From the UHGV virus genome UHGV-1801311: a stretch of 13,814 nucleotides of DNA; one strand, given 5' to 3'. The notes under the pieces are model-generated. The model worked only from the letters and a program-made list of their open reading frames with translations. It had not been told where the DNA came from and searched no databases. The position numbers were made by a program, and so were the translations under genes. Position 1 is the first letter of the stretch; each line of letters opens with the position of its first letter. Positions 6,140 through 13,814 of this stretch are shown one piece after another. This DNA is from a virus.

Positions 6140-6555
6140 GTTTTGCCCTGAAACTGGCGCGCGAGATGGGGCGACCCGACTGGCGTGCCATGCTTGCCGG
6201 GATGTCATCCACGGAGTATGCCGACTGGCACCGCTTTTACAGTACCCATTATTTTCATGATGTTCTGCTGGATATGCACTTTTCCGGGCTGACGTACACC
6301 GTGCTCAGCCTGTTTTTCAGCGATCCGGATATGCATCCGCTGGATTTCAGTCTGCTGAACCGGCGCGAGGCTGACGAAGAGCCTGAAGATGATGTGCTGA
6401 TGCAGAAAGCGGCAGGGCTTGCCGGAGGTGTCCGCTTTGGCCCGGACGGGAATGAAGTTATCCCCGCTTCCCCGGATGTGGCGGACATGACGGAGGATGA
6501 CGTAATGCTGATGACAGTATCAGAAGGGATCGCAGGAGGAGTCCGGTATGGCTGA
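5717..6555 (+). CDS. GT: Tail assembly chaperone gpGT, made by -1 programmed ribosomal frameshift from G into the T frame at the slippery site 6115-6121
   Basis: The T frame (6121..6555) has no independent start or RBS. It overlaps the 3' end of G and follows the slippery heptamer G GGA AAG positioned exactly as in lambda. The T frame ends at TGA 6553-6555, overlapping the H start. Confidence 0.8.
6115..6121 (+). promoter_or_regulatory. Slippery heptanucleotide GGGAAAG for the G/GT -1 programmed ribosomal frameshift
   Basis: Direct read: in the G frame the codons are G GGA AAG (Gly-Lys, codons 134-135), 6 codons before the G stop. Shifting -1 enters the T ORF. Confidence 0.85.
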
Positions 6556-9109
6556 ACCGGTAGGCGATCTGGTCGTTGATTTAAGTCTGGATGCGGCCAG
6601 ATTTGACGAGCAGATGGCCAGAGTCAGGCGTCATTTTTCCGGTACGGAAACTGATGCGAAAAAAACAGCGGCAGTCGTTGAACAGTCGCTGAGCCGACAG
6701 GCGCTGGCTGCACAGAAAGCGGGGATTTCCGTCGGGCAGTATAAAGCCGCCATGCGTATGCTGCCTGCACAGTTCACCGACGTGGCCACGCAGCTTGCAG
6801 GCGGGCAAAGTCCGTGGCTGATCCTGCTGCAACAGGGTGGTCAGGTTAAGGACTCCTTCGGCGGGATGATCCCCATGTTCAGGGGGCTTGCCGGTGCGAT
6901 CACCCTGCCGATGGTGGGGGCCACCTCGCTGGCGGTGGCGACCGGTGCGCTGGCGTATGCCTGGTATCAGGGCAACTCAACCCTGTCCGATTTCAACAAA
7001 ACGCTGGTCCTTTCCGGCAATCAGGCGGGACTGACGGCAGATCGTATGCTGGTCCTGTCCAGAGCCGGGCAGGCGGCAGGGCTGACGTTTAACCAGACCA
7101 GCGAGTCACTGACGGCGCTGGTGAATGCCGGTGTGCGTGGTGGTGAGCAGTTTGAGGCGATCAGCCAGAGTGTGGCGCGTTTCTCCTCTGCATCCGGCGT
7201 GGAGGTGGACAAGGTCGCTGAAGCCTTCGGGAAGCTGACCACAGACCCGACGTCGGGGCTGACGGCGATGGCACGCCAGTTCCATAACGTGACGGCGGAG
7301 CAGATTGCGTATGTTGCTCAGTTGCAGCGTTCCGGCGATGAAGCCGGGGCATTGCAGGCGGCGAACGAGGCCGCAACGAAAGGGTTTGATGACCAGACCC
7401 GCCGCCTGAAAGAGAACATGGGCACGCTGGAGACCTGGGCAGACAGGACAGCGCGGGCATTCAAATCCATGTGGGATGCGGTGCTGGATATTGGTCGTCC
7501 TGATACCGCGCAGGAGATGCTGATTAAGGCAGAGGCTGCGTTTAAGAAAGCAGACGACATCTGGAATCTGCGCAAGGATGATTATTTTGTTAACGATGAA
7601 GCGCGGGCGCGTTACTGGGATGATCGTGAAAAGGCCCGTCTTGCGCTTGAAGCCGCCCGAAAGAAGGCTGAGCAGCAGACTCAACAGGACAAAAATGCGC
7701 AGCAGCAGAGCGATACCGAAGCGTCACGGCTGAAATATACCGAAGAGGCGCAGAAGGCTTACGAACGGCTGCAGACGCCGCTGGAGAAATATACCGCCCG
7801 TCAGGAAGAACTGAACAAGGCACTGAAAGACGGGAAAATCCTGCAGGCAGATTACAACACGCTGATGGCGGCGGCGAAAAAGGATTATGAAGCGACGCTG
7901 AAAAAGCCGAAACAGTCCGGCGTGAAGGTGTCTGCGGGCGATCGTCAGGAAGACAGTGCTCATGCTGCCCTGCTGACGCTTCAGGCAGAACTCCGGACGC
8001 TGGAGAAGCATGCCGGAGCAAATGAGAAAATCAGCCAGCAGCGCCGGGATTTGTGGAAGGCGGAGAGTCAGTTCGCGGTACTGGAGGAGGCGGCGCAACG
8101 TCGCCAGCTGTCTGCACAGGAGAAATCCCTGCTGGCGCATAAAGATGAGACGCTGGAGTACAAACGCCAGCTGGCTGCACTTGGCGACAAGGTTACGTAT
8201 CAGGAGCGCCTGAACGCGCTGGCGCAGCAGGCGGATAAATTCGCACAGCAGCAACGGGCAAAACGGGCCGCCATTGATGCGAAAAGCCGGGGGCTGACTG
8301 ACCGGCAGGCAGAACGGGAAGCCACGGAACAGCGCCTGAAGGAACAGTATGGCGATAATCCGCTGGCGCTGAATAACGTCATGTCAGAGCAGAAAAAGAC
8401 CTGGGCGGCTGAAGACCAGCTTCGCGGGAACTGGATGGCAGGCCTGAAGTCCGGCTGGAGTGAGTGGGAAGAGAGCGCCACGGACAGTATGTCGCAGGTT
8501 AAAAGTGCTGCCACGCAGACCTTTGATGGTATTGCGCAGAATATGGCGGCGATGCTGACCGGCAGTGAGCAGAACTGGCGCAGCTTCACCCGTTCCGTGC
8601 TGTCCATGATGACAGAAATTCTGCTTAAGCAGGCAATGGTGGGGATTGTCGGGAGTATCGGCAGCGCCATTGGCGGGGCTGTTGGTGGCGGCGCATCCGC
8701 GTCAGGCGGTACAGCCATTCAGGCCGCTGCGGCGAAATTCCATTTTGCAACCGGAGGATTTACGGGAACCGGCGGCAAATATGAGCCAGCGGGGATTGTT
8801 CACCGTGGTGAGTTTGTCTTCACGAAGGAGGCAACCAGCCGGATTGGCGTGGGGAATCTTTACCGGCTGATGCGCGGCTATGCCACCGGCGGTTATGTCG
8901 GTACACCGGGCAGCATGGCAGACAGCCGGTCGCAGGCGTCCGGGACGTTTGAGCAGAATAACCATGTGGTGATTAACAACGACGGCACGAACGGGCAGAT
9001 AGGTCCGGCTGCTCTGAAGGCGGTGTATGACATGGCCCGCAAGGGTGCCCGTGATGAAATTCAGACACAGATGCGTGATGGTGGCCTGTTCTCCGGAGGT
9101 GGACGATGA
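6548..9109 (+). CDS. H: Tail tape-measure protein gpH, 853 aa
   Basis: MAEPVGDLVVDLSLDAARFDEQMARVRRHF... is recognised as lambda gpH. Has a long Ala/Gln/Lys/Glu-rich helical middle and a Gly-rich C-terminal segment (GIVGSIGSAIGGAVGGGASASGG...). Length matches lambda H. Confidence 0.92.
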   Translation: MAEPVGDLVVDLSLDAARFDEQMARVRRHFSGTETDAKKTAAVVEQSLSRQALAAQKAGISVGQYKAAMRMLPAQFTDVATQLAGGQSPWLILLQQGGQVKDSFGGMIPMFRGLAGAITLPMVGATSLAVATGALAYAWYQGNSTLSDFNKTLVLSGNQAGLTADRMLVLSRAGQAAGLTFNQTSESLTALVNAGVRGGEQFEAISQSVARFSSASGVEVDKVAEAFGKLTTDPTSGLTAMARQFHNVTAEQIAYVAQLQRSGDEAGALQAANEAATKGFDDQTRRLKENMGTLETWADRTARAFKSMWDAVLDIGRPDTAQEMLIKAEAAFKKADDIWNLRKDDYFVNDEARARYWDDREKARLALEAARKKAEQQTQQDKNAQQQSDTEASRLKYTEEAQKAYERLQTPLEKYTARQEELNKALKDGKILQADYNTLMAAAKKDYEATLKKPKQSGVKVSAGDRQEDSAHAALLTLQAELRTLEKHAGANEKISQQRRDLWKAESQFAVLEEAAQRRQLSAQEKSLLAHKDETLEYKRQLAALGDKVTYQERLNALAQQADKFAQQQRAKRAAIDAKSRGLTDRQAEREATEQRLKEQYGDNPLALNNVMSEQKKTWAAEDQLRGNWMAGLKSGWSEWEESATDSMSQVKSAATQTFDGIAQNMAAMLTGSEQNWRSFTRSVLSMMTEILLKQAMVGIVGSIGSAIGGAVGGGASASGGTAIQAAAAKFHFATGGFTGTGGKYEPAGIVHRGEFVFTKEATSRIGVGNLYRLMRGYATGGYVGTPGSMADSRSQASGTFEQNNHVVINNDGTNGQIGPAALKAVYDMARKGARDEIQTQMRDGGLFSGGGR

Positions 9110-9435
9110 AGACCTTCCGCTGGAAAGTGAAACCCGGTATGGATGTGGCTTCGGTCCCTTCTGTAAGAAAGGTGCGCTTTGGTGATGGCTATTCTCAGCG
9201 AGCGCCTGCCGGGCTGAATGCCAACCTGAAAACGTACAGCGTGACGCTTTCTGTCCCCCGTGAGGAGGCCACGGCGCTGGAGTCGTTTCTGGCTGAGCAC
9301 GGGGGCTGGAAAGCCTTTCTGTGGACGCCGCCTTATGAGTGGCGGCAGATAAAGGTGACCTGCGCAAAATGGTCGTCGCGGGTCAGTATGCTGCGTGTTG
9401 AGTTCAGCGCAGAGTTTGAACAGGTGGTGAACTGA
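9106..9435 (+). CDS. M: Minor tail protein gpM (tail tip), 109 aa
   Basis: MKTFRWKVKPGMDVASVPSVRKVRFGDGYSQRAPAGLNANLKTYS... is recognised as lambda gpM. ATGA overlap with the H stop. Confidence 0.9.
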   Translation: MKTFRWKVKPGMDVASVPSVRKVRFGDGYSQRAPAGLNANLKTYSVTLSVPREEATALESFLAEHGGWKAFLWTPPYEWRQIKVTCAKWSSRVSMLRVEFSAEFEQVVN

Positions 9436-10133
9436 TGCAGGATATCCGGCAGGAAACACTGAATGAATGCACCCGTGCGGAGCAGTCGGCCAGCGTGGTG
9501 CTCTGGGAAATCGACCTGACAGAGGTCGGTGGAGAACGTTATTTTTTCTGTAATGAGCAGAACGAAAAAGGTGAGCCGGTCACCTGGCAGGGGCGACAGT
9601 ATCAGCCGTATCCCATTCAGGGGAGTGGTTTTGAACTGAATGGCAAAGGCACCAGTACGCGCCCCACGCTGACGGTTTCTAACCTGTACGGTATGGTCAC
9701 CGGGATGGCGGAAGATCTGCAGAGTCTGGTCGGTGGAACGGTGGTCCGGCGTAAGGTTTACGCCCGTTTTCTGGATGCGGTGAACTTCGTCAACGGAAAC
9801 AGAGACGCCGATTCGGAGCAGGAGGTGATCAGCCGCTGGCGCATTGAGCAGTGCAGCGAACTGAGCGCGGTGAGTGCCTCCTTTGTACTGTCCACGCCGA
9901 CGGAAACGGATGGCGCTGTTTTTCCGGGACGTATCATGCTGGCCAACACCTGCACCTGGACCTATCGCGGCGATGAGTGCGGTTATAGCGGTCCGGCGGT
10001 CGCGGATGAATATGACCAGCCGACGTCCGATATCACGAAGGATAAATGCAGCAAATGCCTGAGCGGTTGTAAGTTCCGCAATAACGTCGGCAACTTTGGC
10101 GGCTTCCTTTCCATTAACAAACTTTCGCAGTAA
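9435..10133 (+). CDS. L: Minor tail protein gpL (tail tip, Cys-rich C-terminus), 232 aa
   Basis: MQDIRQETLNECTRAEQSASVVLWEIDLTEVGGERYFFCNEQ... is recognised as lambda gpL. Stop TGA of M overlaps ATG 9435. C-terminal Cys cluster (CTWTYRGDECGY...CSKCLSGC). Confidence 0.9.
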   Translation: MQDIRQETLNECTRAEQSASVVLWEIDLTEVGGERYFFCNEQNEKGEPVTWQGRQYQPYPIQGSGFELNGKGTSTRPTLTVSNLYGMVTGMAEDLQSLVGGTVVRRKVYARFLDAVNFVNGNRDADSEQEVISRWRIEQCSELSAVSASFVLSTPTETDGAVFPGRIMLANTCTWTYRGDECGYSGPAVADEYDQPTSDITKDKCSKCLSGCKFRNNVGNFGGFLSINKLSQ

Positions 10134-10137
10134 TCCC

Positions 10138-10881
10138 ATGACAGAGACAGAATCAGCGATTCTGGCGCACGCCCGGCGATGTGCGCCAGCGGAGTCGTGC
10201 GGCTTCGTGGTGAGAACACCGGAGGGGGAAAGATATTTTCCCTGCGTGAATATCTCCGGTGAGCCGGAGGCGTATTTCCGGATGTCGCCGGAGGACTGGC
10301 TGCGGGCAGAGATGCAGGGTGAGATTGTGGCGCTGGTCCACAGCCACCCCGGTGGTCTGCCCTGGCTGAGTGAGGCTGACCGGCGGCTGCAGGTGCAGAG
10401 TGATTTGCCGTGGTGGCTGGTCTGCCGGGGGACGATTCATAAGTTCCGCTGTGTGCCGCATCTCACCGGGCGGCGCTTTGAGCACGGGGTGACGGACTGT
10501 TACACGCTGTTCCGGGATGCTTATCATCTGGCGGGGATTGAGATGCCGGATTTTCATCGCGGGGATGACTGGTGGCGTCACGGCCAGAATCTCTATCTGG
10601 ATAATCTGGAGGCCACAGGGCTGTATCAGGTGCCGTTGTCATCAGCACAACCGGGCGATGTGCTGCTGTGCTGTTTTGGTTCATCGGTGCCGAATCATGC
10701 CGCCATTTACTGTGGTGACGGTGAGCTGCTGCACCATATTCCTGAACAACTGAGCAAACGAGAGAGGTATACCGACAAATGGCAGCGACGCACACACTCC
10801 CTCTGGCGTCACCGGGCATGGCGCGCATCTGCCTTTACGGGGATTTACAACGATTTGGTCGCCGCATCGACCTTCGTGTGA
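10138..10881 (+). CDS. K: Tail tip assembly protein gpK, JAB/MPN metalloprotease-like plus NlpC/P60 domain. Extended N-terminus; the classical lambda start corresponds to ATG 10282.
   Basis: The region matching the 199-aa lambda K annotation begins MSPEDWLRAEMQGEIVALVHSHPGG at 10282. The same frame is open upstream to ATG 10138 (MTETESAILAHARRCAPAESCGFVVRTPEGERYFPC...), which supplies the Glu-containing N-terminal half of a JAB/MPN domain ahead of the HSHPGG...SEAD metal-binding motif. The 3' end overlaps I by 103 nt. Confidence 0.8.
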   Translation: MTETESAILAHARRCAPAESCGFVVRTPEGERYFPCVNISGEPEAYFRMSPEDWLRAEMQGEIVALVHSHPGGLPWLSEADRRLQVQSDLPWWLVCRGTIHKFRCVPHLTGRRFEHGVTDCYTLFRDAYHLAGIEMPDFHRGDDWWRHGQNLYLDNLEATGLYQVPLSSAQPGDVLLCCFGSSVPNHAAIYCGDGELLHHIPEQLSKRERYTDKWQRRTHSLWRHRAWRASAFTGIYNDLVAASTFV

Positions 10882-11450
10882 AAACGGGGGCTGAAGCCAT
10901 CCGGGCACTGGCCACACAGCTCCCGGCGTTTCGTCAGAAACTGAGCGACGGCTGGTATCAGGTACGGATTGCCGGGCGGGACGTCAGCACGTCCGGGTTA
11001 ACGGCGCAGTTACATGAGACTCTGCCTGATGGCGCTGTGATTCATATTGTTCCCAGAGTCGCCGGGGCCAAGTCAGGTGGCGTATTCCAGATTGTCCTGG
11101 GGGCTGCCGCCATTGCCGGATCATTCTTTACCGCCGGAGCCACCCTTGCAGCATGGGGGGCAGCCATTGGGGCCGGTGGTATGACCGGCATCCTGTTTTC
11201 TCTCGGTGCCAGTATGGTGCTCGGTGGTGTGGCGCAGATGCTGGCACCGAAAGCCAGAACTCCCCGTACACAGACAACGGATAACGGCAAACAGAACACC
11301 TATTTCTCCTCACTGGATAACATGGTTGCCCAGGGCAATGTTCTGCCGGTTCTGTACGGTGAAATGCGCGTGGGGTCACGCGTGGTTTCTCAGGAGATCA
11401 GCACGGCAGACGAAGGGGATGGTGGTCAGGTTGTGGTGATTGGTCGCTGA
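10779..11450 (+). CDS. I: Tail tip assembly protein gpI (ubiquitin-like N-terminal domain, Gly/Ala-rich hydrophobic C-terminal half), 223 aa
   Basis: MAATHTLPLASPGMARICLYGDLQRFGRRIDLRVKTGAEAIRAL... is recognised as lambda gpI. Overlaps K in a different frame exactly as in lambda. Confidence 0.9.
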   Translation: MAATHTLPLASPGMARICLYGDLQRFGRRIDLRVKTGAEAIRALATQLPAFRQKLSDGWYQVRIAGRDVSTSGLTAQLHETLPDGAVIHIVPRVAGAKSGGVFQIVLGAAAIAGSFFTAGATLAAWGAAIGAGGMTGILFSLGASMVLGGVAQMLAPKARTPRTQTTDNGKQNTYFSSLDNMVAQGNVLPVLYGEMRVGSRVVSQEISTADEGDGGQVVVIGR

Positions 11451-12931: not shown

Positions 12932-13050
12932 GCACGCATGCGCTGGTGCTGGCGAAGGGCAAAGTGGTGGCGTTCGACGAGAAGGACGCGTTCGATTTCG
13001 ACGAGTTCTCGACGCTGTATCGCTCGACGGTTGGCATGGGGGTGGCGTAG
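12929..13050 (+). CDS. C-terminal fragment (about 40 codons) of an ABC-transporter ATP-binding protein, plausibly CcmA-like; 5' truncated at the junction
   Basis: Frame +2 reads ...CTHALVLAKGKVVAFDEKDAFDFDEFSTLYRSTVGMGVA* with stop TAG at 13048-13050 immediately before the CcmB-like ATG. This is a typical ABC-ATPase C-terminal tail. Assignment is by position and motif only. Confidence 0.4.
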
Positions 13051-13767
13051 ATGGCGGTCGAGCTAAAGAAGCCCTCGACCTTCCAGCAGTACAAGACGCT
13101 GCTGCGCAAGGACTTGGAGCAGGAGTTCCGCACGAAGGAGATGCTCACGTCCATGGGCATCTACGCGCTTTTGGTGATCATCGTGTACGGGGCGGCGCTG
13201 GCGCAGACCTCGCAGACCACCGACGTGCTGCAGATGAGCGGCGGCCTTCTGTGGGCGCTCATCGTGTTCACGTCGCTTTTGGGCCTGAACCGCTCGTTCG
13301 CGCACGAGAAGGAGCAGGGCTGCATGGAGGGCATCCTGCTGGTGCCGATGGACCGTTCGGTGGTGTTCCTGGCGAAATCGACGTCGAACCTGCTGTTCTT
13401 GCTGGTGGTGGAAGTGATCGCCGTGCCGCTGTTCTACTTCTTCTTCCTGACCACCACCACGCCGTCCGAGAGCTTCTGGCTGCTCGTGGTGCCGCTGCTC
13501 GTGGGCACCGTCGGCGTGGCGGGCATCGGCACGCTGCTGTCCACCATCACCATCAACACGCGCGGCAAGGACGTGATGTTGGCCGTGCTGTTCATCCCGC
13601 TGATCTTTCCGCTGCTGTACGCATGCGTGTCCGCGACGACGGCGGTCATCGTGGGCGCGGAAGGATATGCGGACATCATGCTGACGTCGTTGGCGCTTGC
13701 GGGCGGCTACGACGTGATCATGATCCTCGCATCGTGGGTTCTGTACGATTTCGTGATTAGCGCTTGA
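13051..13767 (+). CDS. ccmB: CcmB-like heme exporter permease (cytochrome c maturation ABC transporter membrane subunit), 238 aa
   Basis: About six hydrophobic segments and an FAHEKEQGCMEGILLVP motif resembling the conserved FxxExExG...E.L region of CcmB. Higher GC with G/C-rich third codon positions, unlike the phage region. ATG follows the upstream stop directly (operon-like). Product call is by motif recognition, not alignment. Confidence 0.6.
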   Translation: MAVELKKPSTFQQYKTLLRKDLEQEFRTKEMLTSMGIYALLVIIVYGAALAQTSQTTDVLQMSGGLLWALIVFTSLLGLNRSFAHEKEQGCMEGILLVPMDRSVVFLAKSTSNLLFLLVVEVIAVPLFYFFFLTTTTPSESFWLLVVPLLVGTVGVAGIGTLLSTITINTRGKDVMLAVLFIPLIFPLLYACVSATTAVIVGAEGYADIMLTSLALAGGYDVIMILASWVLYDFVISA

Positions 13768-13768
13768 T

Positions 13769-13796
13769 GTTCCGTCGGCCTGCCGGCCGACGGAAC
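13769..13796. repeat. Perfect 12-bp inverted repeat (GTTCCGTCGGCC-TGCC-GGCCGACGGAAC) immediately after the ccmB-like stop
   Basis: Direct read: the arms at 13769-13780 and 13785-13796 are exact reverse complements. No downstream T-tract is visible within the window (only 18 nt remain). Confidence 0.7.
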
Positions 13797-13814
13797 TGCT
13801 CGATGCTGCGAGGC

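Follow-up and report, generated by a model that had tools for sequence, protein, structure and literature searches.

Phage lambda is the reference siphophage, and gpK is among the last of its essential tail proteins to which neither a location nor a function has been assigned: it is required for tail assembly, with its location reported as unknown (PMC12617516), and it was not found by virion mass spectrometry (PMC10721106). Lambda K was listed in 2003 among the JAMM proteins, the motif of which is defined as E-Xn-H-S/T-H-X7-S-X2-D (Ambroggio et al. 2003, PMC300881), and the fusion of a JAB domain to an NlpC/P60 domain, together with its link to the ubiquitin-like gpI, was published in 2006 by Iyer et al. 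(PMC1779556). We examined gene K in the UHGV virus genome UHGV-1801311, a stretch of 13,814 nucleotides (hereinafter the window), where K very probably starts at ATG 10138 and thus gains 48 N-terminal residues over the classical lambda annotation.

The E...HxH...S..D motif is common to K, Pyrococcus furiosus JAMM1 (PfJAMM1, 5ld9/5lda), DSY2949 (2kks) and the archaeal desampylases; unlike these minimal prokaryotic JAMM enzymes, K carries its domain fused to NlpC/P60 and is encoded in a phage tail operon. With E. coli MepS/Spr and B. subtilis CwlO/LytE, K shares a full-length Pfam match and a conserved Cys-His-His set, whereas no signal peptide or cell-wall-binding module is present for K in the retrieved annotations. 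The family described by Iyer et al. (2006) has an architecture identical to that of the window K and the same L-K-I-J neighbourhood, with the Lambda_tail_I/ubiquitin-like (Ubl) domain in I; an earlier note on this DNA, made from the sequence alone, had mentioned the two-domain K next to a ubiquitin-like gpI as an arrangement discussed in the literature. The passages concerned do not discuss the lambda start site or a frameshift in the lambda reference.

The window contains a lambdoid late operon with the gene order H-M-L-K-I-J, as in lambda, and its L-to-I stretch is 98.7% identical in DNA to phage 21 and 97.7% identical to lambda. K is assigned to the phrog_30 family (lambda-type tail tip assembly protein K, TAPK) by score and by gene order, with the L homologue before it and the I homologue, then J, after it. 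Its lambda orthologue (NP_040598.1 / AAA96551.1, annotated at 199 aa) corresponds to window K residues 49-247, whereas in the window, and in real lambda DNA, the protein is longer by 48 residues at its N-terminus. The two loci further differ in T2-E3 of the window (T-Q in lambda), in R26 (S in lambda) and in an L-K spacer that is one base shorter in the window. Long K is already known from databases and from the family literature, and what follows is a useful correction rather than new biology or a new kind of system.

Conservation of the N-terminal extension

The earlier note had proposed that K starts at ATG 10138, 4 nt past the L stop, instead of at ATG 10282, the equivalent of the classical start, and that it ends at 10881; these coordinates are exact. 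Its statement that the frame is open back to the upstream ATG holds for the window and for other lambda records, though not for J02459.1/NC_001416.1, which is one G short. Openness itself is not beyond chance: a stop-free stretch of 48 codons has P ~0.16 from composition in this 58% GC DNA, and of the 48-codon windows that make up the phage part, 34% contain no stop. The case for coding therefore rests on homology, substitution pattern and fold prediction.

The 247-aa form matches Prok-JAB (PF14464) with 53.1 bits over profile positions 4-112 of 114, well above the Pfam gathering score of 25 bits. By contrast, the 199-aa form scores 23.5 bits, below the cut-off, and covers profile positions 63-112 only, that is, the C-terminal half of the domain, in agreement with the suggestion that it is too short for a whole JAB/MPN domain. 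The N-terminal 48 residues by themselves match Prok-JAB profile positions 3-41 with 24.1 bits. The NlpC/P60 profile (PF00877, gathering score 23 bits) is matched over its full length, positions 1-105 of 105, by residues 111-224 with 47.7 bits, and this match is retained by the 199-aa form; the profile search thus bears out an intact JAB/MPN domain followed by a C-terminal NlpC/P60 domain in a K of about 247 aa. In sequence alignments, PDB entries 2kks and 2kcq and PfJAMM1 likewise begin at residue/profile position 3-16 and run across P-x-E-x-C-G.

An exhaustive HMMER search of 1.84 billion representatives returned 2789 homologues. The 99 full-length homologues with less than 62% identity all begin to align within query residues 1-19. 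Relative to the long start, their N-termini lie mostly at -1 to +7, and none of the 99 starts near residue 49. Conservation thus extends through the extension to the upstream ATG, the opposite of the pattern among homologues that would have spoken for the classical start. A 28-sequence alignment of homologues with 32-58% identity shows C21, G22 and N38 in every sequence and P17, E19 and F47 in at least 90% of them; the extension contains the motif P17-x-E19-x-C21-G22.

The DNA substitution pattern points in the same direction. Comparison of six related DNA sequences gave 25 variable sites within the 144-nt extension, 5 at the first, 3 at the second and 17 at the third codon position (binomial p = 4e-4), and the codon changes comprise 11 synonymous against 4 non-synonymous ones. 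The constraint on the extension is at least as strong as that on the remainder of K, and the comparison indicates that the K frame is under purifying selection across it. Open reading frames (ORFs) on the reverse strand at 9983-10219 and 10153-10581 were considered as well and found no support, the third-position bias fitting the K frame on the plus strand.

The upstream start also fits the spacing of the operon. In each of the 10 other phage and prophage records with a long-form annotation, the L-K junction measures -4 to +8 nt, a range that holds out to Providencia, mEp013 and T1-like phages. An ATG adjacent to the junction, either after or overlapping the L stop, is present in 11 of the 11 loci compared. 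The short call would leave an L-K gap of 148 nt, where the other operon junctions measure -4, -1 and -103 nt. The spacer reads TCCC (4 nt) in the window and phage 21, and ATCCC or ATCCA (5 nt) in lambda and most relatives, a one-base indel in the only non-coding bases of the junction.

These comparisons also bear on initiation at a different upstream codon, namely TTG 10096 (inside L), GTG 10207 or GTG 10246. TTG 10096 is the first start in a mechanical ORF list, KT232076 uses the equivalent of GTG 10246, and protein clusters P0026 (224 aa) and P0039 (211 aa) represent calls of this kind. Such starts are nevertheless highly improbable: the N-termini of the 99 distant homologues lie within a few residues of ATG 10138, the ATG directly past the L stop recurs in every locus compared, the residues encoded by 10096-10137 overlap L and have no counterpart in homologues, and either GTG would delete the conserved helix 1 and Glu19.

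Predicted catalytic domains of K

With the extension included, K contains a complete JAMM motif, consisting of E19, H68-S69-H70, S78 and D81 (codons checked). H68, H70 and D81 are invariant and S69 and S78 at least 90% conserved among the 28 homologues, and Glu19 aligns with the Glu of PfJAMM1, 2kks and 2kcq. HSHPGG begins at K residue 68 (number 20 in the 199-aa form) and is followed by SEAD from residue 78; the motif is thus as close to the N-terminus of the short form as the earlier note had remarked.

An AlphaFold2 model of K has a mean predicted local distance difference test (pLDDT) score of 78, rising to 88-94 over residues 1-40 and to ~90 over residues 60-70. The N-terminal elements are predicted as a helix (residues 3-15) followed by a β-hairpin (21-27 and 30-36). 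The extension had been described beforehand as a strand and helix with the conserved Glu of JAB/MPN domains; the Glu stands, being conserved and aligned with the region of the JAMM catalytic Glu, while the order of the secondary structure elements is the other way round in the prediction. In Foldseek searches, the best PDB matches of the model are PfJAMM1 structures 5lda/5ld9, alone and bound to the ubiquitin-like SAMP2, over 107-108 columns with a root-mean-square deviation of 2.4-2.7 Å, E ~2e-5 and a TM-score, normalised to the target, of 0.65-0.68. Rpn11 and NlpC/P60 endopeptidases come next. The JAB domain of K, as modelled, accordingly has the MPN fold. K also matches the NCBIfam desampylase model NF041370 weakly, with 28.9 bits against a cut-off of 130 for this equivalog; it shares fold and motif with the archaeal desampylases but does not belong to their orthologous group.

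In the NlpC/P60 domain, all 28 homologues have H187, and at least 90% of them have C121 and H199; from established knowledge of the family, these three residues form the catalytic triad. Matches of the NlpC/P60 type, from both Foldseek and hidden Markov model searches, include MepS/Spr, CwlO and LytE. K would thus be a 28-kDa enzyme of 247 aa and two domains, a JAMM-type JAB/MPN domain (E19, H68, H70, S78, D81) followed by an NlpC/P60 domain (C121, H187, H199). A truncated K of 199 aa would be without the catalytic Glu and half of the fold.

Translation start of K

Codon 49, the classical start, is variable. Of 26 close representatives of 247-aa clusters, 14 have Met at this codon, 10 have Ile and 2 have Pro; the codon encodes Ile also in L007 and L008, and it reads ATT (Ile) in E. 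coli prophage and Stx-type relatives of ~85% identity. In distant homologues, Met49 aligns with I/M/L/V at a hydrophobic position within the consensus F-x-I-x-P-x-D. Relatives with Ile at codon 49 therefore have no classical start available and, judged from these alignments, Met49 cannot be the conserved start of K.

Several observations weigh against a long K with two active domains. We found no Shine-Dalgarno (SD) sequence before ATG 10138, the best duplex reaching +0.7 kcal/mol; by contrast, a strong GGAGG (-9.5 kcal/mol with the anti-SD) lies 11 nt upstream of the internal ATG 10282, which makes some internal initiation possible. Our searches found no direct protein-level evidence (N-terminal sequence, intact mass or ribosome profiling) for either form, and full-text searches found no paper that discusses the gpK N-terminus or start site. 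The K model is a prediction from a shallow alignment of 20 sequences, with the mean pLDDT of 78 given above, and catalysis by the JAMM and NlpC/P60 domains is predicted from sequence. Literature searches found no report of gpK enzymatic activity, and a PDB sequence search found no solved gpK structure, returning distant JAMM and NlpC/P60 relatives only.

The internal GGAGG raises the question of a nested gene pair, in which coupling to L yields the 247-aa K, while initiation at ATG 10282 through GGAGG 10266-10270 yields a shorter K' of 199 aa that retains NlpC/P60 and a non-functional JAB remnant, much like other in-frame nested pairs of lambda. The spacing of 10-11 nt is comparable to that of the SD of the classical I start, CPT annotators marked the GGAGG as a ribosome-binding site in lambda imm21, several gene callers pick ATG 10282, and thousands of proteins fall into the 199-aa clusters P0055 and P0063-65. 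The internal ATG, on the other hand, is replaced by Ile or Pro in 12 of the 26 close cluster representatives and by I/L/V in distant homologues, and its product would be without helix 1, the first hairpin and the catalytic Glu. Moreover, the GGAGG is kept in relatives with ATT at codon 49, and its retention there without an ATG is explained by the coding of E-P-E-A rather than by selection for initiation. With codon 49 variable and GGAGG present where no ATG follows, a nested pair with a conserved internal start was rejected, and production of both forms in the window appears unlikely.

Initiation of K at ATG 10138 most probably occurs by termination-reinitiation coupled to translation of L, as suggested by the combination of a missing SD at this ATG and an L stop 4 nt upstream. 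The long form is predicted at 28.3 kDa and yields the peptides (M)TETESAILAHAR, CAPAESCGFVVR and YFPCVNISGEPEAYFR; the short form, predicted at 23.0 kDa, is without them.

A base missing from the lambda reference

The record J02459.1/NC_001416.1 has the end of L at 14127 and places K at 14276-14875. Alignment with the window and other lambda records places a missing G in this reference at CCGGAGGC^GTATTTCC, after reference nt 14266, which corresponds to window 10272. The reference ORF from ATG 14133 consequently reads MTQTESAILAHARRCAPAESCGFVVSTPEGERYFPCVNISGEPEA, then shifts frame and stops at 14363 after 76 codons, and in the K frame of the reference a stop precedes ATG 14276 by 7 codons. 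The G was found in each of the 11 further records that were checked; they comprise four independent lambda genomes (LC730321, PV340536, KT232076 and OM418625) as well as DE3, HK629, phage 21, three E. coli prophages and Lys8385Vzw. An inserted G at 14266 is reportedly also listed in the lambda sequence notes of a commercial supplier.

The same base appears in a whole-genome study of the MutaMouse lambda-gt10 transgene, which lists '14266 C->CG' among the constitutional variants relative to the reference (PMC6760142, Table 5). The lambda-gt10 variant list of that study also holds 137 AG->A (PMC6760142), which suggests a second reference discrepancy near cos.

Since the missing G puts the true N-terminal 45 codons out of frame, the internal ATG was the only start that the reference sequence allowed, and the classical 199-aa lambda K is an annotation artefact of a one-base omission in the 1982 reference. 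On the simplest reading, the base was missed in 1982 or its absence is a private mutation of that stock. In the searchable literature, we found no statement that connects the truncated K with the frameshift in the reference.

The converse reading, that the 199-aa K is right, with the 144 nt before it serving as an untranslated spacer or holding a small ORF of their own, draws on the 199-aa entry in J02459.1/NC_001416.1 and many derived records, on the SD of the internal start and on phrog_7305, a family of 76 positions that matches K residues 1-76, just as the reference ORF ending at 14363 has 76 codons. We regard it as very improbable, since the frame is continuous in the window and in every non-reference lambda record examined, the reference frameshift depends on a one-base difference that no resequenced lambda shows, the upstream part is conserved as protein out to 32-58% identity and constrained by codon position, the JAB profile match crosses the junction unbroken, and close relatives are without the internal ATG. 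As for phrog_7305 itself, a PHROGs family of unknown function that matches 10138-10365 with 172 bits, it may have been built from truncated or frameshifted K fragments, given that the frameshifted ORF of the reference is likewise 76 codons long.

Gene I and a possible function of K

The neighbouring gpI matches Pfam Lambda_tail_I (PF06805) over residues 14-97 with 100 bits, a domain identified as ubiquitin-like by Iyer et al. (2006, PMC1779556), so that the adjacency of K to a ubiquitin-like gpI, which the earlier note had pointed out, is confirmed. The start of gene I is inconsistently annotated: the classical call from ATG 10779 gives 223 aa, and a call from GTG 10878, which overlaps the K stop as GTGA and is used by the Prokaryotic Genome Annotation Pipeline (PGAP) and some phage records, gives 573 nt and 190 aa. 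The Lambda_tail_I domain begins at residue 14 of the 223-aa gpI, where Met14 lies at ATG 10818, and the 190-aa call would therefore remove the first Ubl strands. In one review, gpI is described as a 190-residue protein.

Being required for tail assembly and undetected in virions, gpK would act as a non-virion assembly enzyme. A role of K in cell-wall digestion at infection is doubtful because gpK is not detected in virions, and the substrate of its NlpC/P60 domain may be a protein rather than murein. According to the proposal of Iyer et al. (2006, PMC1779556), the JAB domain cleaves at the C-terminal glycine of the Ubl of TAPI (gpI). Two cryo-electron microscopy (cryo-EM) studies of the tail tip saw only gpI residues 134/135-223, which fits this proposal without being proof of it. 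The JAMM domain of K would, by the same logic, process gpI, probably at the glycine that ends the β-grasp domain, although we hold processing of gpI by K only tentatively and rate it as less probable than its absence. The N-terminal region of gpI may simply be disordered in the cryo-EM maps rather than cleaved. Virion mass spectrometry of gpI yielded one peptide and 9.9% coverage, too little to show whether the Ubl is lost.

A second candidate substrate lies upstream. The protease that converts the tape-measure protein gpH (gene H of the window) to gpH* is reported as unknown (PMC12617516), and K, which has two peptidase domains, takes part in assembly only and is encoded two genes downstream, is an obvious candidate for it. 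It is conceivable, if somewhat unlikely, that gpK is an active JAMM peptidase that clips the Ubl domain of gpI at tail-tip assembly and leaves a plug of residues ~134-223, that it is the protease for gpH to gpH*, or both. If true, work with the 199-aa construct would have used a catalytically dead fragment, and a phage deubiquitinase-like step would constitute a morphogenetic checkpoint.

Gene order and annotation of the locus

The positions of K, its domains and its neighbours are collected in Table 1.

Table 1 Features of the K locus in the window (all on the strand shown)
Feature	Coordinates	Strand	Remarks
Gene H	6548-9109	+	
Gene M	9106-9435	+	
Gene L, minor tail / tail tip protein L, coding sequence (CDS)	9435-10133	+	Pfam Phage_tail_L, 331.5 bits
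L stop TAA	10131-10133	+	
Gene K, full-length CDS	10138-10881	+	744 nt, 247 aa, 28.3 kDa; phrog_30 match over residues 1-247, 546 bits
K start ATG	10138-10140	+	
48-codon N-terminal extension of K	10138-10281	+	Without counterpart in the classical lambda annotation
JAB/MPN (JAMM) metalloprotease domain	10147-10449	+	Residues 4-104; Pfam PF14464
Glu19 codon	10192-10194	+	JAMM motif, predicted catalytic Glu; precedes the classical start
GGAGG, SD-like sequence within K	10266-10270	+	Codons E42-P43-E44-A45
G not in J02459.1/NC_001416.1	10272	+	10 nt before the internal ATG
Internal ATG (Met49, codon 49, MSPEDWL...)	10282-10284	+	Classical lambda K start
H68-S-H70-x7-S78-x2-D81	10339-10380	+	Predicted zinc ligands and Ser of the JAMM motif
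NlpC/P60 (C40) cysteine peptidase domain	10468-10809	+	Residues 111-224; Pfam PF00877
C121	10498-10500	+	NlpC/P60 catalytic set
H187	10696-10698	+	NlpC/P60 catalytic set
H199	10732-10734	+	NlpC/P60 catalytic set
Gene I, classical 223-aa call	10779-11450	+	Different frame from K; 103-nt overlap with the K end; putative partner or substrate of K
K stop TGA	10879-10881	+	
Gene J	from 11511	+	

K is annotated at several lengths. The 744-nt (247-aa) form is given as "C40 family peptidase" by PGAP in E. coli chromosomes and is also found in phage 21, in Lys8385Vzw and in the 2025 lambda record PV340536; the 600-nt (199-aa) form stands in NC_001416, HK629, DE3 and lambda imm21; and KT232076 has 636 nt (211 aa), from the start equivalent to GTG 10246. 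Clusters P0026 and P0039 hold proteins of 224 aa and 211 aa, respectively, and the 199-aa clusters are labelled with the NlpC/P60 Pfam family only.

Despite its truncation, the 199-aa entry (NP_040598.1 / AAA96551.1) continues to serve for analysis and cloning. A 2020 review applied HHpred to the 199 residues, placed a peptidase at 52-182 only and missed the JAB domain, and a 2025 immune-trigger screen listed NP_040598.1 as its gpK. The 247-aa K is the correct construct for the JAB-ubiquitin-like hypothesis on gpK and gpI, and makes the case for correcting J02459/NC_001416.

Chimeric end of the window

Homology to phage gene J ends at 12933, where J is truncated after ~474 codons, and a comparison of the remaining 12934-13814 with 5,426 complete E. 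coli genomes gave no match. Positions 12935-13050 hold the end of another ORF without a Pfam match, which resembles an ABC ATPase C-terminus by eye only, and 13051-13767 encode a CcmB-type permease (Pfam CcmB, 97 bits) that is 97% identical in protein to that of Gordonibacter pamelaeae, a gut actinobacterium of the Eggerthellaceae. The window is thus chimeric with a junction near 12933/12934, probably a metagenome mis-assembly, and the 749-aa 'J' ORF that runs to 13760 is an artefact of read-through across this junction.

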